Below, one piece after another: positions 26,087 through 45,335 of a stretch of DNA of 64,000 nt (position 1 is its first letter; each line of letters opens with the position of its first letter). This DNA is from Escherichia coli. Lineage in GTDB: Bacteria; Pseudomonadota; Gammaproteobacteria; Enterobacterales; Enterobacteriaceae. The translations under genes were made by a program, and so were the position numbers. The stretch is taken from assembly GCF_009931435.1 (NCBI RefSeq), contig NZ_CP043414.1. One strand, 5' to 3'. The notes under the pieces are model-generated. The model was not told the DNA's origin. It searched no databases and saw nothing but the letters and a program-made list of their open reading frames with translations.

Positions 26087-26592
26087 AAAACTCCTGCATG
26101 GCGCAAGTTAATCACCCGCGGCCAAAGTTCGAAATAACGCTGCTCTGAAAGCCAGGCGTCAGGATAAAGCGCCATATAGTGTTTGATACGCATCAGCGGC
26201 GCAAGAAGCGGTTGCTCGCCACGGCGATAACTGTCGATAAGCGCCGCCAGCTGCTGGCGTTCTGTGGAATCAATATGTGGGCGAAAATAACCCTGAACGT
26301 GCATCAAAACGTTGGTGTGATCGCGCGGGTTGGCGGGATGAGAAAGCAAAACAATTACGCGTTGGCGGTACTGGTTGTAATAGTCACCCAGATTTTGCCA
26401 CTGGTGAATATCAGCCACAAACGGGCCAAGTTTGCGGTATTCCGGCTGGGAATGAGCCAGAAAGACGAGTTTATAGCGGCTGTGATAATCGAGAAGCGCC
26501 CCGCGCGTTAAGCCTCGCTCTTTAAGACGGTGTAACTCATGCAAAGCAAAAATGCGGATAAGGGTGCTGTCATCAAAAAGTTGTTGATTCAT
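26083..26592 (-). CDS. ybgA: DUF1722-family protein cotranscribed with phr
   Basis: 169-aa ORF MNQQLFDDSTLIRIFALHELHRLKERG, stop overlaps phr start. Confidence 0.9.
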   Translation of the reverse strand: MNQQLFDDSTLIRIFALHELHRLKERGLTRGALLDYHSRYKLVFLAHSQPEYRKLGPFVADIHQWQNLGDYYNQYRQRVIVLLSHPANPRDHTNVLMHVQGYFRPHIDSTERQQLAALIDSYRRGEQPLLAPLMRIKHYMALYPDAWLSEQRYFELWPRVINLRHAGVL

Positions 26593-26676
26593 TACTACTC
26601 CTGGGCGGTTTACAGGAGTAAGTGTAGACGGCGGTACTGAAAAAACGAAACGAATAAATGATAACAGTAAAAAAAT

Positions 26677-27126
26677 TCAATTATTCATAATAAATTTCAT
26701 GGTGGCAAGAAATAGTTTCTTTTCTTCATCACTCATGGCAGCAACGTTTAACATGTTGTCATCAAAATTATTGATGATATTTTTTAATTTCAGTAACTGC
26801 AAAGGAGAAAAATAGTCACTCCCGATGAGATTACTCAATACCAGCAATAGCTCCCCATCATATAAATAGCCCACCATAAGATTAATCTCTATCATCTCAA
26901 TTGCTTTTTGTACAGCAAGCGCCGGTAAGATATTCTGACGAAGCATTTTGGCAATATCATTTTCATCCAGTTCATCGGGTGTTTTATCTAATAAAGAATT
27001 ATACCAGTTTATTAAACCACTTTTGAAAGCGAACGAATCATATTGCAGGTGATAAATCTGTTTTAGGGTTTCTTTATTTTTCAATTTATAGTGCCTTTGT
27101 TTGCTATAATTTTTCTGAAATAACAT
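26677..27126 (-). CDS. hypothetical protein, 149 aa, AT-rich, predicted helical; immunity-protein-like by context
   Basis: ORF with ATG overlapping the stop of the upstream gene (TGATG); strongly AT-rich codon usage unlike flanking core genes. Confidence 0.6.
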   Translation of the reverse strand: MLFQKNYSKQRHYKLKNKETLKQIYHLQYDSFAFKSGLINWYNSLLDKTPDELDENDIAKMLRQNILPALAVQKAIEMIEINLMVGYLYDGELLLVLSNLIGSDYFSPLQLLKLKNIINNFDDNMLNVAAMSDEEKKLFLATMKFIMNN

Positions 27127-27593
27127 CAGCGAGTTTGCTCAGGTGCAGGGATGACCGAAATTGTCATGTATTTTTTCAGTCTGGCTTCTCGTTTCACACC
27201 TTTCGGATCTGAACCAAAAGGAAGCGTCAAGCATGGTGAGTCAACGGTTTGGATTGTCCAGAGAGAATCACCAATGAATCTGAAATTGATGCTATCCGCT
27301 GTAACGGATAATCCCTCAAAACTTCCCGTCGCATACTCATTACCCAAACGTACGGTCTCTTTAACTCCATCATTAACATCGATAAGGACAATTGTCAGTG
27401 ATTCCTCAAAAATAACGTCATCCGTCAGAAAAAGGATATAACGCTGGTCATTAACCTGAATTGCCGCTTCCAGTATTTGCCCTGGTACAATAATACCTGT
27501 GTTATTGCCATTGAGCACAACGTCAGACTGAGCCTGAGATAAATCAGTCGCTTTGTGAACCTTGACCAACGATATCGAATTAACCTGTTGCAT
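27126..27593 (-). CDS. hypothetical protein, 155 aa (start at MQQVNSISLVKVHKATD; the 186-aa track ORF is probably over-extended)
   Basis: ATG at 27593 two nt downstream of the stop of the glycine-zipper ORF; first 31 codons of the track ORF overlap that ORF in another frame. Confidence 0.6.
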   Translation of the reverse strand: MQQVNSISLVKVHKATDLSQAQSDVVLNGNNTGIIVPGQILEAAIQVNDQRYILFLTDDVIFEESLTIVLIDVNDGVKETVRLGNEYATGSFEGLSVTADSINFRFIGDSLWTIQTVDSPCLTLPFGSDPKGVKREARLKKYMTISVIPAPEQTR

Positions 27594-27595
27594 AA

Positions 27596-27736
27596 TCAAT
27601 TCCACAAGCGCCCCATTTCCCATGCGGCAAGTGCACCGCCGACAAAGCCGCCAATAAGTACGCAAACAGGTGCACCTGGACCACACACCAATCCTGCCAT
27701 CGCGCCGCCTGCGACAGCTCCGGCAATAATATTCAT
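27596..27736 (-). CDS. small glycine-zipper membrane peptide, 46 aa (MNIIAGAVAGGAMAGLVCGPGAPVCVLIGGFVGGALAAWEMGRLWN); candidate small toxin or C-terminal remnant of a polymorphic toxin
   Basis: translated by hand from the minus strand; repeated GxxxG/AxxxG motifs, two hydrophobic segments; weak Shine-Dalgarno; open frame continues 35 codons upstream to a TAG at 27842-27844 without a start codon. Confidence 0.4.
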   Translation of the reverse strand: MNIIAGAVAGGAMAGLVCGPGAPVCVLIGGFVGGALAAWEMGRLWN

Positions 27737-27919
27737 CCGGGTACGACTGCCAGTGGTTTTAACAGATTTGCGCTCACCGTTACGTATCCTGCCACCACTC
27801 AGGTTGCAGACGCGGCAGTCACAGCCTTGACGGTGTTGAAACTAAAGTTCAGGTGATAGTCTGATGTTCATAGTTTGAGCATTATCCCCTGACAGAATCA
27901 AATCAAGCAGTGTCAATGA

Positions 27920-28177
27920 TCACGTGTATATATCATTTAAAGCATTATCAAGCCAATCTTCCATGTTTTTAATTTTAGCCCGCGCATATAAATCATTCAT
28001 AACATCCTCATAACTCTGTCCATCATTGACCATACAATTAGCTGTATGAGGCAGAACATGTATAAAATCAGACAATATAAAACAAGCCTTTGAATTTCCA
28101 GAGTTAGCTGCAATTCTGATATCAATCAATCCTCTGGCAATCAATTTAAGAATAACATCTTGCATTTTAATTTCCAT
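27920..28177 (-). CDS. hypothetical protein, 85 aa, AT-rich
   Basis: ORF MEIKMQDVILKLIARGLIDIRIAANSGNSKACFILSDF downstream of the SUKH-like gene on the same strand. Confidence 0.45.
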   Translation of the reverse strand: MEIKMQDVILKLIARGLIDIRIAANSGNSKACFILSDFIHVLPHTANCMVNDGQSYEDVMNDLYARAKIKNMEDWLDNALNDIYT

Positions 28178-28259
28178 ATCATTCAGTTAAATTTCAGTAG
28201 TAAATCGTCTATCAAAAAAAGATGAAATTAACATTCATAAATTTATTACAATATGAAAA

Positions 28260-28613
28260 TCAAAAATATACATCATCAGCTTCTACCGAAAACTCCATGG
28301 CTCCTAAGGCACCTAAATCAATACTAAATATAGTATCACTTTCCTTAGCACTCCCAACATAGATAAAATAGCCTAAATCTCCGTCTTGACCTATCAAAAA
28401 ATAGTCAGGTTCCACTTGTTGAATATCATATGTTTCATTTCTTTCAATAAGATCAGAATAGTTATATAAATATAATGTTTCGTGCTTCTTATTAGTTATT
28501 TCATAGGTCTCACTATCTTTAATTTCTTCTATCAAAAAACGTTTATACACTGGAGGAAACTTGATTGACATGTCAAATTCAATTTTATTTATATATTCTA
28601 TAATTTTATTCAT
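28260..28613 (-). CDS. SMI1/KNR4 (SUKH)-like immunity-type protein, 117 aa
   Basis: motifs FPPVYKRFL and FLIGQDGDLGYFIYVG...IFSIDLG resemble the SUKH superfamily pattern; assignment by eye, not by search. Confidence 0.55.
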   Translation of the reverse strand: MNKIIEYINKIEFDMSIKFPPVYKRFLIEEIKDSETYEITNKKHETLYLYNYSDLIERNETYDIQQVEPDYFLIGQDGDLGYFIYVGSAKESDTIFSIDLGALGAMEFSVEADDVYF

Positions 28614-28848
28614 GTTAAGAATACCTGAAAGATTATTTATTGATTATCTTGATGAATATATCTTCACTTTTTATTTTCATTTACTCATCGCGGAAATACA
28701 CATTGCCTTGTAGACAAGCGCTAATAATACGTTATGAACCTGACTTCCGCCAGACAATCAATCAATGAATTCATTACGCCGTAGTGTTTTAGAAAGACAC
28801 TTTCTGACCAGATGGTGAACCATATACTACATCGCGCATTATAAAAAA

Positions 28849-28872
28849 ACCGCCAGCGTTTCCACTAGCGGT
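28849..28872 (-). terminator. intrinsic terminator downstream of ybfA
   Basis: imperfect hairpin accgccag-cgtttcca-ctagcggt with a U-run on the minus strand (plus-strand aaaaaaa at 28843-28849). Confidence 0.5.
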
Positions 28873-28897
28873 TTTCAATGTTTTCAAAACTCAGCAA

Positions 28898-29104
28898 TCA
28901 GTAAAAATCACCGGTTGCCTTTTCGGCCTGATCCATCCACACCGGTTTATCGCTGGTTTTCGACCAGACGCGGTGCAGGTAGCTGTAAAAGCGGGCGCGG
29001 TCTTTCCAGAAAAGCATGAAAGGCAGCGCCAGAACGCCCGCTGCAACCGCATAAGTACGGCGTAAAAAGATAAGCCATGCAGGATATTCTCTGTAAAGTT
29101 CCAT
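28898..29104 (-). CDS. ybfA: DUF2517-family small protein
   Basis: 68-aa [71 protein letters not shown]. Confidence 0.9.
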
Positions 29105-29416
29105 ACTTTTCTCCCCCTTTTGTATCTACCCGGTGAATGGCACCGGAAAAATGAATTTGTTTATCTGATGAAAATAGTACCGCCTTTTGTGTAATTTTAC
29201 TACTCATCCGACCACTTATTTTTGCTTATTGATGGTTTATTTACATTCATCCCGTAATTAAGTTACATAAAAGTTAAATTAATACTAAACATTAGTTAAA
29301 TCATGGCTTTTGCCATTTTTATACTTTTTTTACACCCCGTCCGCAGATTTTTGCGAAATCTTTGCAGCCAGAATTCTACCCTTCCGGTATCACTTTTAGG
29401 CCACTGGAGGTGCACT
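29105..29416 (+). promoter_or_regulatory. kdpFABC promoter region (KdpE-dependent)
   Basis: AT-rich spacer upstream of kdpF; function from established knowledge, binding site not mapped. Confidence 0.5.
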
Positions 29417-36508: not shown

Positions 36509-37182
36509 CAAACGTTCTGATTGTTGAAGATGAACAGGCTATTCGTCGCTTTCTGCGCACGGCGCTGGAGGGTGACGGTATGCGCGTTTTTGAAGCCGAA
36601 ACGCTGCAACGGGGGCTGCTGGAAGCGGCGACTCGTAAGCCAGATTTGATTATTCTCGATCTCGGCCTGCCAGACGGTGATGGGATTGAGTTTATCCGCG
36701 ACCTGCGCCAGTGGAGCGCGGTGCCAGTAATTGTGCTTTCCGCCCGCAGCGAAGAGAGCGACAAAATCGCCGCGCTGGATGCCGGAGCGGATGATTACCT
36801 GAGTAAGCCATTTGGCATTGGTGAATTGCAGGCCCGTCTGCGCGTCGCATTACGCCGCCACTCCGCCACCACCGCGCCCGAGCCGCTGGTGAAATTTTCC
36901 GATGTTACCGTCGATTTAGCTGCCCGCGTGATTCACCGCAGTGAGGAAGAGGTGCATCTCACCCCGATTGAATTCCGCCTGCTGGCGGTGCTACTCAACA
37001 ATGCCGGAAAAGTGCTCACCCAGCGCCAGCTTCTCAACCAGGTGTGGGGACCAAACGCGGTCGAACACAGCCACTATTTGCGTATTTATATGGGGCATCT
37101 GCGACAAAAACTGGAGCAAGATCCCGCCCGCCCTCGCCATTTTATTACTGAAACCGGTATTGGGTATCGGTTTATGCCATGA
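36505..37182 (+). CDS. kdpE: response regulator KdpE (OmpR family)
   Basis: 225-aa [36 protein letters not shown]. Confidence 0.95.
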   Translation: MTNVLIVEDEQAIRRFLRTALEGDGMRVFEAETLQRGLLEAATRKPDLIILDLGLPDGDGIEFIRDLRQWSAVPVIVLSARSEESDKIAALDAGADDYLSKPFGIGELQARLRVALRRHSATTAPEPLVKFSDVTVDLAARVIHRSEEEVHLTPIEFRLLAVLLNNAGKVLTQRQLLNQVWGPNAVEHSHYLRIYMGHLRQKLEQDPARPRHFITETGIGYRFMP

Positions 37183-37456
37183 ATTATTATTCAATAAATA
37201 CGCTTAACTAATTATTAATTTATTATTAAACCTGCCCCGAAAATTATTATTTGGCAGGTTTAATTTCTTAATGAAAATATAACCTACGAAATTGCAACAT
37301 TTAAACAACAAAACAGCATCTAATATGGCGCTATTCATAATTAACGATTTATTATTTGGGGTGTGATCGTTTTTTGTTGATCTTCTTCACAGTTTATAGC
37401 CTTTTCATGGATAGAATAACTCTACCTTCAACTGACACAGCAAAAGGTAAAGGTAA

Positions 37457-37871: not shown

Positions 37872-40070
37872 ATGTCAGAATTAAAAATTGCCGTTAGTCG
37901 TTCTTGCCCGGATTGTTTTTCCACTCATCGTGCATGCGTGAATATTGACGAAAGTAATTATATTGACGTTGCCGCCATTATTTTATCAGTCAATGATGTT
38001 GAACGTGGAAAACTCGATGAAATAGACGCTACTGGCTATGGCATTCCTGTTTTTATTGCAACGGAAAATGAAGAACGTGTACCAGCAGAATATCTGCCAC
38101 GTATTACTGGTGTCTTCGAGCATTGCGAATCACGGAAAGAATTTTACGGACGTCAGTTAGAAACCGCCGCCAGCCATTATGAAACGCAGCTGCGCCCGCC
38201 CTTCTTCCGCGCACTGGTCGATTATGTCAATCAGGGCAATAGCGCTTTTGACTGCCCGGGTCATCAGGGGGGTGAGTTTTTCCGTCGCCATCCGGCAGGC
38301 AATCAGTTCGTGGAATATTTTGGCGAAATGCTCTTCCGCTCCGACTTGTGTAATGCCGACGTAGCAATGGGCGATCTACTGATTCATGAAGGTGCGCCAT
38401 GCATTGCACAGCAACATGCGGCTAAAGTGTTTAATGCCGATAAAACGTACTTTGTTTTAAACGGCACCTCCTCTTCCAACAAAGTGGTTTTAAACGCCCT
38501 GCTAACACCGGGTGATCTGGTGCTGTTTGACCGCAATAACCATAAGTCTAACCACCACGGGGCCTTGCTACAGGCTGGTGCAACACCGGTTTATCTGGAA
38601 ACAGCACGTAACCCGTATGGTTTTATCGGTGGTATTGATGCGCACTGCTTCGAAGAAAGTTATCTGCGTGAACTGATTAGAGAAGTTGCACCGCAACGGG
38701 CAAAAGAGGCGCGTCCGTTCCGCCTCGCTGTGATTCAGTTAGGCACCTACGACGGTACTATTTATAACGCCCGCCAGGTGGTGGATAAAATCGGTCATCT
38801 GTGTGACTACATCCTGTTTGACTCAGCATGGGTCGGCTATGAACAGTTTATTCCGATGATGGCGGACTGTTCGCCGCTGCTACTGGAGCTTAATGAGAAC
38901 GATCCGGGTATTCTGGTTACGCAATCTGTACATAAGCAGCAGGCTGGTTTTTCTCAGACTTCACAAATTCATAAAAAAGACAGCCATATCAAAGGGCAAC
39001 AGCGTTATGTACCGCACAAACGCATGAACAACGCCTTTATGATGCACGCCTCCACCAGCCCGTTCTATCCGCTGTTTGCCGCACTGGATATTAACGCCAA
39101 AATGCATGAAGGTGTCAGCGGTCGTAATATGTGGATGGATTGTGTGGTTAACGGTATTAATGCCCGCAAATTGATCCTCGATAACTGCCAGCACATTCGT
39201 CCGTTCGTTCCTGAACTGGTGGATGGTAAACCCTGGCAATCGTATGAAACAGCGCAAATTGCGGTTGATCTGCGCTTCTTTAAATTTGTACCCGGTGAGC
39301 ACTGGCATTCTTTTGAAGGTTACGCAGAGAATCAATACTTTGTCGATCCGTGCAAACTGTTGCTGACAACCCCAGGTATTGATGCACGTAACGGCGAATA
39401 CGAAGCGTTCGGTGTACCCGCGACGATTCTTGCTAACTTCCTGCGCGAAAATGGCGTAGTGCCGGAAAAATGCGATCTTAACTCCATCCTCTTCCTGCTG
39501 ACTCCGGCAGAAGATATGGCCAAACTGCAGCAACTTGTTGCCCTGCTGGTACGCTTCGAAAAACTACTGGAAGCTGATGCGCCTCTGGCGGAAGTATTGC
39601 CTTCCATCTACAAACAGCATGAAGAGCGCTACGCCGGTTATACCCTGCGTCAGTTGTGCCAGGAAATGCATGATTTGTATGCCCGTCACAACGTGAAACA
39701 ACTGCAAAAAGAGATGTTCCGTAAGGAACACTTCCCACGCGTCAGCATGAATCCACAGGAAGCCAACTATGCCTACTTACGCGGTGAAGTGGAATTGGTT
39801 CGTCTGCCGGATGCAGAAGGCCGTATCGCAGCCGAAGGTGCGCTTCCTTATCCTCCGGGTGTGCTGTGTGTTGTTCCGGGTGAAATCTGGGGTGGTGCTG
39901 TTCTGCGTTACTTCAGCGCTCTGGAAGAAGGGATCAACCTGCTGCCAGGTTTTGCACCGGAGCTGCAGGGTGTCTATATCGAAGAACATGATGGTCGTAA
40001 GCAAGTTTGGTGCTATGTCATCAAGCCTCGTGATGCGCAAAGCACCCTGTTGAAAGGGGAAAAATTATGA
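37872..40070 (+). CDS. speF: inducible ornithine decarboxylase
   Basis: start taken at MSELKIAVSRSCPDCFSTHRACVNIDES (732 aa) within ORF 37863..40070. Confidence 0.95.
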   Translation: MSELKIAVSRSCPDCFSTHRACVNIDESNYIDVAAIILSVNDVERGKLDEIDATGYGIPVFIATENEERVPAEYLPRITGVFEHCESRKEFYGRQLETAASHYETQLRPPFFRALVDYVNQGNSAFDCPGHQGGEFFRRHPAGNQFVEYFGEMLFRSDLCNADVAMGDLLIHEGAPCIAQQHAAKVFNADKTYFVLNGTSSSNKVVLNALLTPGDLVLFDRNNHKSNHHGALLQAGATPVYLETARNPYGFIGGIDAHCFEESYLRELIREVAPQRAKEARPFRLAVIQLGTYDGTIYNARQVVDKIGHLCDYILFDSAWVGYEQFIPMMADCSPLLLELNENDPGILVTQSVHKQQAGFSQTSQIHKKDSHIKGQQRYVPHKRMNNAFMMHASTSPFYPLFAALDINAKMHEGVSGRNMWMDCVVNGINARKLILDNCQHIRPFVPELVDGKPWQSYETAQIAVDLRFFKFVPGEHWHSFEGYAENQYFVDPCKLLLTTPGIDARNGEYEAFGVPATILANFLRENGVVPEKCDLNSILFLLTPAEDMAKLQQLVALLVRFEKLLEADAPLAEVLPSIYKQHEERYAGYTLRQLCQEMHDLYARHNVKQLQKEMFRKEHFPRVSMNPQEANYAYLRGEVELVRLPDAEGRIAAEGALPYPPGVLCVVPGEIWGGAVLRYFSALEEGINLLPGFAPELQGVYIEEHDGRKQVWCYVIKPRDAQSTLLKGEKL

Positions 40071-41386
40071 GTCAGGCTAAATCGAACAAAATGGGCGTCG
40101 TTCAGTTAACCATACTGACGATGGTCAACATGATGGGCTCCGGCATCATCATGCTGCCGACAAAGCTTGCCGAAGTTGGGACAATCTCAATAATCTCCTG
40201 GTTGGTGACAGCCGTAGGCTCAATGGCGCTGGCATGGGCATTCGCAAAATGCGGTATGTTCAGCCGTAAATCAGGCGGTATGGGCGGTTATGCCGAGTAT
40301 GCTTTCGGTAAATCCGGTAACTTTATGGCGAACTATACCTACGGCGTCTCGCTGCTGATTGCTAACGTGGCGATTGCTATTTCGGCAGTTGGTTACGGCA
40401 CCGAACTGCTCGGCGCGAGTTTGTCACCAGTGCAGATTGGTCTGGCAACCATCGGAGTGCTGTGGATTTGTACCGTGGCTAACTTTGGTGGTGCGCGCAT
40501 TACCGGGCAAATCAGTAGCATTACCGTGTGGGGGGTCATTATTCCGGTGGTAGGCCTGTGCGTTATCGGCTGGTTCTGGTTTAGCCCGACACTTTACGTT
40601 GATTCCTGGAATCCGCATCATGCACCGTTCTTCAGTGCGGTAGGTTCTTCCATCGCCATGACGCTGTGGGCTTTTCTTGGTCTGGAGTCTGCGTGTGCGA
40701 ATACTGATGTAGTGGAAAACCCGGAACGTAATGTGCCAATCGCGGTACTCGGCGGTACGTTAGGTGCGGCGGTGATTTATATCGTCTCCACCAACGTGAT
40801 TGCCGGGATTGTGCCCAATATGGAGCTGGCAAATTCAACGGCACCATTTGGTCTGGCCTTCGCGCAAATGTTCACACCGGAAGTGGGTAAAGTCATTATG
40901 GCGCTGATGGTGATGTCCTGCTGCGGTTCACTGCTTGGCTGGCAGTTCACCATTGCCCAGGTGTTTAAATCTTCATCTGATGAAGGCTACTTCCCTAAAA
41001 TTTTCTCCCGTGTAACCAAAGTGGATGCACCGGTTCAGGGGATGTTGACCATTGTGATTATTCAGAGTGGATTGGCACTGATGACCATTAGCCCGTCACT
41101 GAACAGCCAGTTCAACGTGCTGGTTAACCTGGCCGTGGTGACCAATATCATTCCGTATATCCTGTCGATGGCGGCATTAGTCATTATTCAGAAGGTCGCC
41201 AATGTGCCACCATCAAAAGCGAAAGTAGCAAACTTTGTTGCCTTTGTTGGTGCGATGTACAGTTTCTATGCGCTGTACTCATCCGGGGAAGAAGCCATGC
41301 TGTACGGTTCCATCGTGACTTTCCTTGGTTGGACACTGTATGGTCTGGTATCACCACGCTTTGAACTGAAAAACAAACACGGTTAA
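40067..41386 (+). CDS. potE: putrescine:ornithine antiporter
   Basis: 439-aa ORF MSQAKSNKMGVVQLTILTMVNMMGSGIIMLPTKLAE, start overlaps speF stop. Confidence 0.95.
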   Translation: MSQAKSNKMGVVQLTILTMVNMMGSGIIMLPTKLAEVGTISIISWLVTAVGSMALAWAFAKCGMFSRKSGGMGGYAEYAFGKSGNFMANYTYGVSLLIANVAIAISAVGYGTELLGASLSPVQIGLATIGVLWICTVANFGGARITGQISSITVWGVIIPVVGLCVIGWFWFSPTLYVDSWNPHHAPFFSAVGSSIAMTLWAFLGLESACANTDVVENPERNVPIAVLGGTLGAAVIYIVSTNVIAGIVPNMELANSTAPFGLAFAQMFTPEVGKVIMALMVMSCCGSLLGWQFTIAQVFKSSSDEGYFPKIFSRVTKVDAPVQGMLTIVIIQSGLALMTISPSLNSQFNVLVNLAVVTNIIPYILSMAALVIIQKVANVPPSKAKVANFVAFVGAMYSFYALYSSGEEAMLYGSIVTFLGWTLYGLVSPRFELKNKHG

Positions 41387-41402
41387 AAAAAGCGAAATAA
41401 AA

Positions 41403-41437
41403 AAGGGCGATTGAATGATCGCCCTTTCTGTTTGTTG
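41403..41437 (+). terminator. intrinsic terminator after potE
   Basis: hairpin aaagggcgat-tgaatg-atcgcccttt followed by ctgtttgtt. Confidence 0.7.
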
Positions 41438-41468
41438 ACAAAGAGTTCGTTATTTATGCCGCATCCGG

Positions 41469-41611
41469 CAGGTGTAGGGTCCAAACGCGGTCGAACACAG
41501 CAACTATTTGCGTAATTATATGAGGCATTTGCGACAAAAACTGGAACAGGATCTCGTCCGCCCCGCCATTTCATTACTGAAACCGGTATTGGGTATCGGT
41601 TTATGCTTTGA
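41469..41611 (+). repeat. degenerate partial duplicate of the kdpE 3' end (direct repeat of 37039..37182)
   Basis: ~143 bp aligning by eye at roughly 90% identity with the last ~144 bp of kdpE, including ccaaacgcggtcgaacacag and aaaccggtattgggtatcggtttatgc; frame broken by an inserted a (tag). Confidence 0.75.
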
Positions 41612-41734
41612 AAAAAGTGGCAATGTATGGATAAAGTCATTTTTTATTCAAATATAAGGAACTTAATATTTAAAAAATGTCCCATACAATGCCTCATCAT
41701 AAATGACACCGTAGCACACAAGGAGCAAGTAGCG

Positions 41735-42385
41735 ATGCGTGAAGTGAGTCAGTTAGTAAATACTGAAGATTCAGCCTGGACAATAATCCAGAATTGGTTA
41801 AAAGAAGCCACAAACCATGCCGAACTCTTACCGGTTAATAAAGATTTAGCCGAAACCGCACTTTATCAATTACAGGTTACAACAAAATCACCGATGGGTG
41901 CGCTTGTCTATGGCTCCGGAGGTCTGCTGATTGATAACGGTTGGTTACGCATAGCAGGCTCTGGTCACCCCCGGTTACCACGAGATCCAGCAAGTTGGAC
42001 ACAACGCCCTGAATTCGCAAGCGTGCGGGCTTTACCCATCGCCGATGATGTCGCAGGGGGAATTTTTGCTCTTAATGGTGGCGATCTTGGGGAAGATACT
42101 GGCTGCGTTTATTATTTTGCGCCAGATACGCTGAGTTGGGAAAGTCTGGAGGTTGGATATTCTGAGTTTCTTCAGTGGGCATTATCCGGTGATTTAGATA
42201 CCTTCTATGAAAATGTACGCTGGCCGCAATGGCAAGAAGACGTAATAAAATTATCGGCAACGGAAGCCTTCACTTTCTACCCTTTCTTATGGGTACAAAG
42301 TGAAGAAGCAAGAACAAGAAAAGTTATTTCGCTTACTGAACTCTGGGAAATGCAGTATCAAATGAAAGAAACAATCACGCAATAA
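41735..42385 (+). CDS. ybfG: YbfG-like hypothetical protein, intact here
   Basis: start taken at MREVSQLVNTEDSAWTIIQNWLKEA with aaggag Shine-Dalgarno; 216 aa within ORF 41627..42385; positional match to K-12 ybfG. Confidence 0.7.
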   Translation: MREVSQLVNTEDSAWTIIQNWLKEATNHAELLPVNKDLAETALYQLQVTTKSPMGALVYGSGGLLIDNGWLRIAGSGHPRLPRDPASWTQRPEFASVRALPIADDVAGGIFALNGGDLGEDTGCVYYFAPDTLSWESLEVGYSEFLQWALSGDLDTFYENVRWPQWQEDVIKLSATEAFTFYPFLWVQSEEARTRKVISLTELWEMQYQMKETITQ

Positions 42386-42425
42386 GACATGTTCAGGTCC
42401 GGGTTTCATTCCCGGACTCGCTATT

Positions 42426-42920
42426 TTAATGTGTGTTTATCGCTTTCAATTCTTGCTGGCAATTTTCTGACTGACAGCGTCGCAACTCAATAATCCCGAC
42501 ATGCATCATCGAGCCAAAAAATCCGCTTTCGCTGACATAATCCTCATTAACTATCGGTCGAGTGCCGGGCTTACCCTGGCAAATCCCCATAAAAAATGAG
42601 GTGTAGCATTGCCATTCAGGATTTAAACCGGTCTTTTCTTGTGCTGACATATCATGAAGATAAGTAAGTTCTTTTTCGTTCCCGCCTGACAACTGCCAGC
42701 GGCGGGTATTATCAGGTAAGTTATCGCCACGGCAATTTGTCTTACACCGGGAAGGCGCAATATTTACCGCAATGCTACCCGTTAATCCTCTGGTTTTATC
42801 TTTAGGGGTCAGTAACCAGTCACCAGCTAATGATGATTGTTCAGGTTGGGCGCATGCTGTCAGCAGTAGTGTGGCGGTAATTAATGCCACTCTGACGACC
42901 AGACTCCTTTTGGTCTTCAT
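42426..42920 (-). CDS. ybfP: lipoprotein
   Basis: start taken at MKTKRSLVVRVALITATLLLTAC (lipobox LLTAC), 164 aa. Confidence 0.8.
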   Translation of the reverse strand: MKTKRSLVVRVALITATLLLTACAQPEQSSLAGDWLLTPKDKTRGLTGSIAVNIAPSRCKTNCRGDNLPDNTRRWQLSGGNEKELTYLHDMSAQEKTGLNPEWQCYTSFFMGICQGKPGTRPIVNEDYVSESGFFGSMMHVGIIELRRCQSENCQQELKAINTH

Positions 42921-42970
42921 TCGGAATTCCCTTGAGCTATTCAGTTTGTTGGCAAAGTACTCGTTGTTCA

Positions 42971-43070
42971 TGCCGGATGCGGCGTGAACGCCTTATCCGT
43001 CCTACAAAATAGTGCAAATTCAATATATTGCACCATCCTCGTAGGCCTGATGAACGTAGCGTATCAGGCT
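42971..43070. repeat. REP elements between pgm and ybfP
   Basis: tgccggatgcggcgtgaacgccttatccgtcctac and gtaggcctgatgaacgtagcgtatcaggc. Confidence 0.5.
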
Positions 43071-43123
43071 ATCATAAGTAAAAAGGGCGATCTTCCGACC
43101 GCCCTTTTTCTTATTTAATGTGT

Positions 43124-44764
43124 TTACGCGTTTTTCAGAACTTCGCTAACAATCTCAACCGCTTCTTTCTCGATCTGCTTGCGATGTTCTTCACCGAGGA
43201 AGCTTTCGCAGTAGATTTTGTATGCGTCTTCCGTGCCTGACGGACGCGCGGCGAACCAGCCGTTGTCAGTCATCACTTTCAGACCGCCAATAGAAGCACC
43301 GTTGCCCGGTGCCGCCGTCAGGCGCGCGGTGATCGGGTCACCAGCCAGGGTGCTGGCGCTCACCATTTCCGGAGACAGCTTAGACAGCGCCGCTTTTTGT
43401 GCGGAAGTCGCAGCTGCCTGCAAACGGTTATAGCTCGGCGCACCAAAGCGTTTTGCCAGTTCGTTGTAGTGTTCCTGCGGGTTCTTACCAGTGACAGCGG
43501 TGATTTCCGCCGCCAGCAGACACATGATAATGCCGTCTTTATCAGTCGACCACGGCGTACCGTCGAAACGCAGGAAGGAAGCCCCCGCGCTCTCTTCGCC
43601 GCCAAAGCCAAAGCTGCCGTCGAACAGACCATCCACAAACCATTTGAAGCCTACCGGGACTTCTACCAGCTTACGGCCTAAGTCATTGACCACACGGTCG
43701 ATCATCGCAGATGAAACCAGCGTTTTACCGACAGCAACATCTTTGCCCCACTGCGGACGATGCTGGAACAGGTAGTTGATCGCCACCGCCAGGTAGTGGT
43801 TAGGATTCATCAAACCTGCCGGAGTGACGATACCGTGACGGTCATAATCCGGGTCGTTAGCAAATGCCAGATCGAACTTATCACGCAGTGCCAGCAGGCC
43901 CGCCATCGCACACTCGGAGGAGCAGTCCATACGGATCGCGCCGTCTTTATCGAGGTGCATAAAGCGGAAGGTTTGATCGACCTGATCGTTAACGATGGTC
44001 AGGTTAAGGTTGTAATACTCGCCAATACGCTTCCAGTATTCGATACCGGAACCGCCCAGCGGATCAACGCCCAGCGTCAGGCCCGCTTTCTGAATCGCCG
44101 CCATATCAACGATATCGGCCAGACCTTCCACAAACGGCTGCACCAGATCCTGCTCTTTCACATGACCGGATGCCATCGCTTCGTCGAGGGAGATACGCTT
44201 CACACCTTTCAGGCCATCGGCCATCAGTGCGTTGGCCCTGTCCTCCACCACTTTGGTGACGTTAGTATCAGCCGGGCCACCATTTGGCGGATTGTACTTG
44301 ATACCACCATCTTCCGGCGGGTTATGGGACGGTGTAATCACGATACCGTCTGCCAGCGGGCCACCTTTTTTATTGTGAACCAGGATGGCATTGGAAACGG
44401 CAGGCGTCGGAGTGAAGCCATTGTTTTCCTGCACAATAACATCTACGCCGTTCGCTGCCAGCACTTCCAGTACGGAAATGAACGCAGGCTCGGACAGGGC
44501 GTGAGTATCTTTACCCACATAGCAAGGGCCAGTGATGCCGTTTTTCGCACGTTCTTCAGCAATTGCCTGAGCGATCGCCAGAATATGCGGCTCGTTAAAG
44601 CTGTGGCGCGCTGCACTGCCACGGTGACCGGAAGTACCGAATTTCACCGCGTGCTCCGCATTCCCTGCTTCAGGTTTCAGTACATAATATTGCGCCGTCA
44701 GTTGGGCGACGTTAATCAAATCACTCTGTTGTGCAGGTTGGCCTGCACGATTGTGGATTGCCAT
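43124..44764 (-). CDS. pgm: phosphoglucomutase
   Basis: start taken at [33 protein letters not shown] (546 aa); active-site TPSHNP motif. Confidence 0.95.
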
Positions 44765-44789
44765 TGCTTTGTCCTTTGTCTGCAACGTT

Positions 44790-45335
44790 TTAGATAGTTC
44801 CGCAAACCTTCTCAATCAATTCCGCCGGGAATTGCATCGACTGCATGATGTGTTCGATCATGCTGCATTTACGGCCGGTGTTGGTGTTGGTGATCACCCA
44901 ATATGGCGTGCCTGGCACATGTTTCGGCTTGGTCTGATTACCATTTTTCAGCAGCGTTTGTTCATCTGCCGCAAAGTAAACGCGTGTACGACCGTGCAAC
45001 GATTCCGTGGCCTCGGCAAACGCCTGGGCGTCAAGAGAATATAGTGTAGACAACAGCAGCATGAAGCGATTGACCGCTCGCTTTTGCTCTGCGTATTCGT
45101 CTGAAAGCAAAAGTTCACGCATTGCGCGAACCTTGTCTTTAATCGTTTTGACCGGCTTCGCTTCGACGATAGCAGGTGACGCAACGCGAACCTCTTTCGT
45201 CACCGGAGCAGCAGGCTGTGATGCGGCGGAAAATTTCAACATACGCCGTAAAATGTCGGATGCGCTCTCGCCGATATGCTTAGTGTGGCTGGCAATATAG
45301 CTGTAGAGTTCATCATCAACTTCAATCGTTTTCAT
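44790..45335 (-). CDS. seqA: negative modulator of replication initiation SeqA
   Basis: start taken at [33 protein letters not shown] (181 aa). Confidence 0.95.

Follow-up and report, generated by a model that had tools for sequence, protein, structure and literature searches.

An intact ybfG gene lies at positions 41735 to 42385 of the plus strand in the Escherichia coli DNA analyzed here, a 64,000-nucleotide stretch of contig NZ_CP043414.1 (assembly GCF_009931435.1) that is referred to below as the window. We lean, with moderate confidence, toward reading YbfG as an orphan immunity protein of the SUKH/Tdi-like type that counters NucA/NucB-type DNase toxins. YbfG would be a small cytoplasmic protein with a SUKH/Tdi-like immunity fold that binds and neutralizes a NucA/NucB-type DNase domain that a competitor delivers on a polymorphic toxin such as Rhs or CdiA. 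The cell carrying ybfG would not make the toxin itself, and the protein would act as a stand-alone antidote, which K-12 would have lost through an amber mutation at Trp70. Both binding to the toxin and protection from it are predicted from the fold and from gene order in Firmicutes. The E. coli protein would presumably still bind a toxin of this presumed type, and envelope stress would be the relevant trigger of its induction.

YbfG is a DUF2625 protein with a predicted immunity-protein fold

The ybfG open reading frame (ORF) runs uninterrupted from ATG to TAA over 216 codons plus the stop, with zero internal stop codons. The original prediction, made from the letters of the window, had described a 216-amino-acid (aa) ORF with an AAGGAG ribosome-binding site (RBS) between potE and ybfP, and all of these features were confirmed. 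The longest mechanical ORF starts farther upstream, at the ATG at 41627 (252 aa); the start is placed at the Met at 41735 both by a family alignment and by RefSeq in its annotation of identical or nearly identical genes. A domain search of the 216-aa protein matched DUF2625 full length (PF10946; E = 1.4e-86; 289.3 bits; cutoff, 27; residues 5 to 202 of 216), and NF008494 (PRK11408.1-1) was matched over residues 1 to 216 (503 bits; cutoff, 278). These Pfam and NCBIfam matches, together with the selection data below, show that ybfG is a real gene and not a chance ORF. Databases already list the exact YbfG protein of the window, on 178 contigs, under the name "DUF2625 domain-containing protein [Escherichia coli]."

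DUF2625 is patchily distributed: of about 100,000 species genomes, at least 562 carry it, most of them from Bacteroidota and others from Proteobacteria, Firmicutes, and Myxococcota. Homologues 42 to 57% identical to YbfG occur in Enterobacterales, Burkholderia, Pseudomonas, many Bacteroidota, Clostridium, Paenibacillus, and Myxococcota. An alignment of 50 sequences including the window protein has 19 invariant columns (L32, S52, G55, G62, D67, R72, G77, R83, D104, D105, G108, G109, G116, P130, Y158, W163, W166, P183, and L185); YbfG of the window carries all of them, and the near-invariant Trp70 is present too. Three Bacteroidota homologues (P0052, P0101, and P0063) have a signal-peptide-like N-terminal extension of about 22 to 27 residues (e.g., MRKLLSTIIFILSTSAIIAQNK-M); either their starts may be miscalled or the protein may be exported in some Bacteroidota.

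A family-profile search of solved structures gave a match at chance level only (4jrf, E = 0.024). Since no solved structure was matched by sequence, the fold was predicted. The AlphaFold2 model of YbfG (predicted local distance difference test score [pLDDT], 93.3; predicted template modeling score [pTM], 0.91) matched Bacteroides Tdi1, which gives immunity to the Ntox15 DNase Tde1 (8g0k_D; score, 13.0), and Agrobacterium Tdi1 (Atu4351; 6itw_A; 11.3). These were followed by two SUKH proteins (2icg_A, 8.8, and 3d5p_B, 8.1), YobK (2prv_B; 8.0), Knr4 (5j1b_A; 6.3), the Rhs immunity protein RhsPI (8bd1_B; 5.2), and Syd (3ffv_B; 4.5). Foldseek returned the identical set of fold matches. The predicted structure has both the SUKH alpha+beta fold and a Tdi-like fold, and YbfG is thus predicted to be a protein of the Tdi/SUKH immunity type.

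DUF2625 genes follow NucA/NucB-type toxin tips in Firmicutes

Gene neighbors were surveyed at 80 species-level DUF2625 loci, with Pfam annotation of 150 neighbors, which is not exhaustive. In nine of nine Firmicute loci, a co-oriented toxin C-terminal domain of the NucA/NucB type (the tip) ends about 30 nt 5′ of the DUF2625 gene. The tip is borne by full-length RHS-repeat proteins (L061 and L109) and by 302-aa orphan Rhs C-terminal fragments (L107, L108, and L110), and it is also found as truncated remnants (L079, L111, and L112) and as an uncalled ORF in Paenibacillus (L113). It matches Pfam DNase_NucA_NucB at 27.0 and 26.8 bits, above the cutoff of 23.8. Clostridium homopropionicum has a 1605-aa RHS-repeat protein whose C-terminal tip is DNase_NucA_NucB-like; its end lies 30 nt from the start of the DUF2625 gene, and behind that gene come an orphan Rhs C-terminal fragment, then a 125-aa gene and Imm53. 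At one locus, the gene for a Clostridium "multispecies" homologue (P0124) immediately follows that of a full-length Rhs protein longer than 2500 aa, and at three other loci it is preceded by a 302-aa orphan Rhs C-terminal fragment with the same tip; these loci are parts of arrays in which barnase-Barstar and Tox-REase cassettes also occur. In C. pasteurianum, an uncultured Clostridium, and Paenibacillus dendritiformis, a truncated or uncalled tip stands immediately 5′ of the DUF2625 gene. Other toxin/immunity cassettes at the Firmicute loci are barnase-Barstar, Ntox24-Imm53, Tox-REase-7/-9, and GH-E-SUFU. A tip followed by DUF2625, both attached to Rhs and as a displaced orphan, has the gene order by which toxin-immunity pairs are usually recognized. 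Over its full length, YbfG shares 45% identity (E = 1e-73) with the Clostridium protein that occupies the immunity position. In the window, ybfG does not stand downstream of such a co-oriented domain, and therefore it could only be an orphan.

Tips 52 to 62% identical are carried on Rhs, CdiA/filamentous-hemagglutinin, PT-HINT, and PT-TG proteins, and tip-bearing Gram-negative bacteria include Salmonella, Enterobacteriaceae, Pseudomonas, Burkholderia, Vibrio, and others. This conservation of the tip has its counterpart in DUF2625, which is unusually well conserved between phyla. Zhang et al. (2012; PMC3482391) placed Imm-SUKH among the partners of Tox-NucA, which we equate by assumption with Pfam PF14040; DUF2625 is absent from their text.

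In Salmonella enterica (L115, 434 to 1063; DAXORP010000040.1), the gene after the tip encodes a 210-aa protein that matches DUF2625 (E = 0.006) and SMI1_KNR4 (E = 0.0017) below threshold and has a core motif, FAEDIFGGQF...VYYFDPET, in common with DUF2625. With the protein after the tip of Enterobacteriaceae RIT711 (L114, 4690 to 5202) included, the motif in common with DUF2625 reads FAEDIFGGQF...VY(Y/L)FDPET. A Pfam search of the two post-tip proteins found nothing above cutoff, and hhalign gave E values of 1.7e-4 and 2.3e-3. They may constitute an undescribed sister family of DUF2625 inside the SUKH superfamily.

Two other sets of loci were considered and set aside. A Flavobacterium locus with SUFU had suggested that the Bacteroidota loci are immunity arrays, an idea that was dropped because the neighbors are heterogeneous. 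A Burkholderia lata copy 4 kb from a VgrG-Rhs pair was rejected as evidence because the two are separated and in opposite orientation.

Several results weigh against an immunity role. No toxin gene or remnant was found beside ybfG in the window or beside its homologues at about 85 Gram-negative loci (tblastn, E < 0.1), so the toxin linkage stands on one phylum, and the Firmicute cassettes are interrelated. Across the 80 species, no conserved DUF2625 neighbor appeared beyond within-genus synteny (435 neighboring proteins fell into 310 clusters), the Bacteroidota neighbors are mostly assorted small enzymes (glyoxalase, GNAT, DinB, and SDR), and SUKH proteins make up 3 of the 150 annotated neighbors, a weak enrichment. 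Enterobacterial toxin tips had no homologue at the nucleotide level in 5426 complete E. coli genomes, and in Burkholderia the tip is followed by ComJ, an unrelated inhibitor. At the profile level, the SMI1_KNR4 (SUKH-1) match to YbfG is below threshold (E = 0.019, 16 bits; cutoff, 25.4), only 3 of the 50 DUF2625 members show a weak SUKH profile match, and none of the 50 matches Pfam DUF1851 or GAD-like at E ≤ 10; Tdi proteins carry both of these domains. DUF2625 proteins are 45 to 55% identical across phyla, beyond typical immunity-protein conservation. SUKH-fold proteins also serve in nonimmunity roles (Knr4, FBXO3, and Syd). Export of the Bacteroidota proteins, if true, would be at odds with a cytoplasmic anti-DNase role.

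Sigma-E control in K-12 and a possible stress role

The K-12 ybfG promoter is one of 28 sigma-E promoters mapped by rapid amplification of cDNA ends (RACE), with the consensus GGAACTT/TCAAA (PMC1312014), and sigma-E induction in K-12 raises the ybfG transcript 25-fold (PMC2731931). Both results are from K-12; the window keeps a perfect -35 GGAACTT, and the mapped promoter would lie on the bases given in Table 1. Two substitutions separate the promoter region from that of K-12, at 41681, which is in the -10 region, and at 41691. A sigma-70 scan found a sigma-70-like site, TTAATA-16-TACAAT (41663 to 41690), that overlaps the candidate sigma-E promoter.

These data also fit a role without a toxin. 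YbfG could be a sigma-E envelope-stress protein, a SUKH-fold adaptor or chaperone-like protein with an endogenous partner, as in Syd-SecY and Knr4/Smi1; the toxin link in Firmicutes would then be a lineage-specific recruitment. The mapped promoter with its retained -35 element, the strong induction, the invariant columns and high identity across phyla, the examined Gram-negative loci without a nearby toxin, and the presence of Syd, Knr4, and FBXO3 among the fold matches all agree with such a protein. We consider this role unlikely.

For an orphan immunity protein, one may speculate that envelope stress from contact attack is the biological trigger of ybfG. Taken as a whole, the proposal that DUF2625/YbfG is a widespread and unusually conserved orphan immunity family protecting broadly against the NucA/NucB tips of Rhs and CdiA toxins, wired in E. 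coli to sigma-E such that attack damage would induce the antidote, and that K-12 would be a natural loss-of-immunity mutant, is tentative, and we consider it doubtful in this complete form.

Codon 70 and the K-12 pseudogene

The statement in the original prediction that K-12 ybfG is annotated as disrupted (with ybfH) proved accurate. In K-12 MG1655 (NC_000913.3), ybfG is b0691 (715947 to 716597), an annotated pseudogene; RefSeq entries of K-12 derivatives carry an "internal stop" remark on it, and an earlier annotation divided the gene into ybfH and ybfG (b0691-0) (PMC2731931). K-12 ybfG serves as a neutral pseudogene knockout control (bioRxiv 10.1101/2022.09.01.506172). Compared base by base, the window and K-12 genes are both 651 nt long and differ at 23 positions (96.5% nucleotide identity). 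The lesion is a single G-to-A difference at 41943 that makes codon 70 TAG in K-12; the length is identical, and the K-12 frame is not intact. The K-12 copy resembles that of the window in locus, length, RBS, promoter region, and terminator. It differs in the TAG codon and in 12 further amino acids, the latter because the window has a minority E. coli haplotype.

Trp70 is kept in at least 90% of the 50 family members, which come from several phyla. Because Trp70 is conserved, both non-K-12 haplotypes have TGG, and 10 of 10 sampled full-length non-K-12 carriers are annotated as intact, the codon-70 stop is, on these comparisons, the derived state. The suggestion that the window may hold the functional ancestral form is supported with qualifications: the allele is intact and TGG is ancestral at codon 70, but the window copy belongs to a minority haplotype and is not the ancestor of the K-12 copy. 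That it is functional is suggested by the intact frame and purifying selection. Public annotation already records both the pseudogene status in K-12 and the intact DUF2625 gene of wild E. coli.

Codon-70 haplotypes were counted by exact 33-mers among the 5426 complete E. coli genomes. The K-12 type (TAG) was found in 364 genomes, the common type (TGG) in 1284, and the window type (TGG) in 129. The three counts total 1777, the whole region is present in 1771 genomes, and Trp70 is found in 1413 of the 5426 (about a quarter); ybfG is entirely absent from about two-thirds of E. coli. In sampled rows, the TAG carriers were almost all K-12, BW25113, J53, HB101, DH5-alpha-type, or "laboratory developed" strains. 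An intact ybfG is the usual, already annotated condition of wild E. coli.

The window allele diverges from the common allele by about 3.4% (22 of 651 nucleotides). Two DUF2625 proteins of wild E. coli, WP_001209503.1 and WP_001208814.1, are intact 216-aa orthologues from the same locus. The gene for WP_001208814.1, the major allele, has 11 nonsynonymous differences from ybfG of the window. WP_001209503.1, the nearest public haplotype, differs by three amino acids (T16P, S134N, and S189C; window positions 41780, 42135, and 42299, where the window has T, S, and S). All three changes are nonsynonymous, with no synonymous difference beside them; at codon 189 the window and the major allele agree.

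Between the window and the major allele, ybfG has 11 synonymous and 11 nonsynonymous differences, a ratio of nonsynonymous to synonymous substitution rates (dN/dS) of 0.27 (binomial P = 0.0036 against neutrality). In comparisons of the window with K-12, ybfP has 12.5 synonymous and 10.5 nonsynonymous differences (dN/dS, 0.23), potE has 42 and 1, and pgm has 46 and 1 (dN/dS below 0.01 for both). By this measure ybfG behaves like a moderately constrained accessory gene and not like a dead one.

These data bear on whether E. coli ybfG is a functionless leftover drifting to loss, its frame in the window merely not yet hit. Decay is visible in the species: most E. coli lack the locus, K-12 has the amber codon, the copy of strain APEC E956 has a 5′ deletion and a frameshift, IS1 or IS200 is inserted adjacent to ybfG in some strains, truncated YbfG variants are present in databases, and the three private amino acid changes of the window allele come with zero synonymous ones. 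However, the dN/dS between two intact haplotypes is well below neutrality, sampled full-length carriers outside K-12 are all intact, and Trp70 is kept in 1413 of the 1777 carriers, the 364 exceptions being essentially one laboratory lineage. The RBS, promoter, and terminator are preserved, and every family-invariant residue is present. We therefore regard a leftover as rather improbable.

Accessory behavior and significance

The gene behaves as an accessory gene, with a patchy distribution, no conserved neighbor, presence/absence polymorphism in E. coli, and independent inactivations. A Yersinia homologue lies in a mobile island with CbtA/CbeA, anti-restriction, Mrr-like nuclease, integrase, and IS110 genes. 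These surroundings and the accessory, horizontally transferred behavior would suit anti-phage defense or other mobile-island cargo in place of anti-toxin immunity, but YbfG matches no PADLOC defense model, it is a single small protein with no enzymatic signature, and the fold and Firmicute gene order indicate toxin immunity, so that this reading is very improbable.

A full-text search of the searchable literature for "DUF2625" found no paper, and what a search for "ybfG" found was limited to regulon tables and to use of the gene as a neutral pseudogene control. What is new here is a modest functional lead for a family without literature. If YbfG is an orphan immunity protein, a conserved family would join the immunity repertoire, a sigma-E regulon member of unknown role would gain a rationale, and K-12 would be without a defense that about one in four complete E. 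coli genomes carries.

Gene arrangement at the ybfG locus

Features of the locus are collected in Table 1. Upstream of ybfG lie speF-potE; downstream, on the opposite strand, is the lipoprotein gene ybfP, followed by pgm and seqA. GC-rich hairpins after potE and after ybfG bracket the gene, the former setting it apart from the speF-potE operon, and ybfG is therefore its own transcription unit. The product of ybfP is a 164-aa lipoprotein (lipobox LLLTAC) with no Pfam, NCBIfam, or PADLOC family match; the gene runs toward ybfG, and the hairpin between the two is common to both.

Table 1. Features of the ybfG locus in the window
Feature	Position	Strand	Basis or remark
potE	40067-41386	+	ybfG neighbor, upstream side
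potE terminator hairpin	41402..41427	+	Terminator scan
Candidate sigma-E promoter	41658..41685	+	-35 GGAACTT at 41658-41664, weak -10-like TCCCA 15 nt downstream; site inferred
Shine-Dalgarno AAGGAG	41720..41725	+	9 nt 5′ of ATG, sequence reading; identical in K-12
ybfG coding sequence, DUF2625 family, intact	41735..42385	+	ORF/translation, PF10946, NF008494
Codon 70, TGG (Trp); TAG in K-12	41942..41944	+	Comparison with NC_000913.3
GC-rich hairpin GGTCCGGG-loop-CCCGGACT, likely terminator	42396..42418	.	Between convergent ybfG and ybfP; terminator scan
ybfP	42426-42920	-	ybfG neighbor, downstream side

Between potE and ybfG is a 145-nt duplicate of the kdpE 3′ end (41469 to 41612, plus strand), 90.3% identical to the window's own kdpE (37039 to 37183). 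Its counterpart in K-12 is ybfI (b4636), which adjoins ybfG and is likewise annotated as a pseudogene. A toxin relic upstream of ybfG in E. coli was looked for and not found; the sequence there holds this kdpE fragment and the potE terminator, and its similarity is to kdpE.

Three arrangements occur in E. coli: kdpE-speF-potE-kdpE′-ybfG-ybfP-pgm; pgm directly after potE (O157, ST131, and many others); and, in a few strains, kdpD-kdpE-ybfP-pgm with REP (repetitive extragenic palindromic)-like sequence and without speF, potE, and ybfG. The gene order suggests that speF-potE was inserted at the end of kdpE, duplicating its 3′ end. In the third arrangement ybfP is present without ybfG, so the two genes are not obligately linked.

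The 1051-nt ybfG region (41400 to 42450) is 99.7% identical to that of strain ECCNB12-2 (NZ_CP033635.1), and the surrounding 6 kb (39235 to 45285) is only 96.9% identical to the same genome. The synonymous rate (dS) relative to K-12 is 0.13 to 0.14 for potE and pgm, and the pgm-chiP stretch has a best match of at most 99.3% among complete E. coli genomes. This gives the locus a mosaic appearance, as if recombination had swapped the ybfG allele independently of its flanks.

Farther upstream, from 26600 to 29360, no ORF of at least 700 aa lies between the ORFs ending at 26592 and a large ORF starting at 29362, which we take to be kdpA. On the K-12 map this interval is occupied by the RhsC element; with the putative gene identities used here, the strain seems to be without RhsC.

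Comparison with known immunity systems

The nearest structural relatives of the YbfG model are the Tdi proteins (8g0k, 6itw, and P. vulgatus Tdi2, 8fzz), which give immunity to type VI DNase effectors and are only 10 to 14% identical to YbfG in structural alignments. Tdi proteins counter an Ntox15 toxin, whereas a NucA/NucB-type toxin stands beside DUF2625 in Firmicutes; neither the window nor the loci with annotated genes, an annotation that is not exhaustive, showed an Ntox15 gene. Tdi acts by insertion into the toxin core, and DUF2625 is likened to it by predicted fold. SUKH immunity proteins (Imm-SUKH, such as B. subtilis YobK and RhsPI) are shorter, about 130 to 160 aa compared with about 220 aa for DUF2625, and are far less conserved across phyla. 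Nin/ComJ, the Bacillus NucA inhibitor, is not similar to YbfG and is placed in PF11033, an unrelated family; in Burkholderia it lies downstream of the same type of tip, where it probably solves the same problem.
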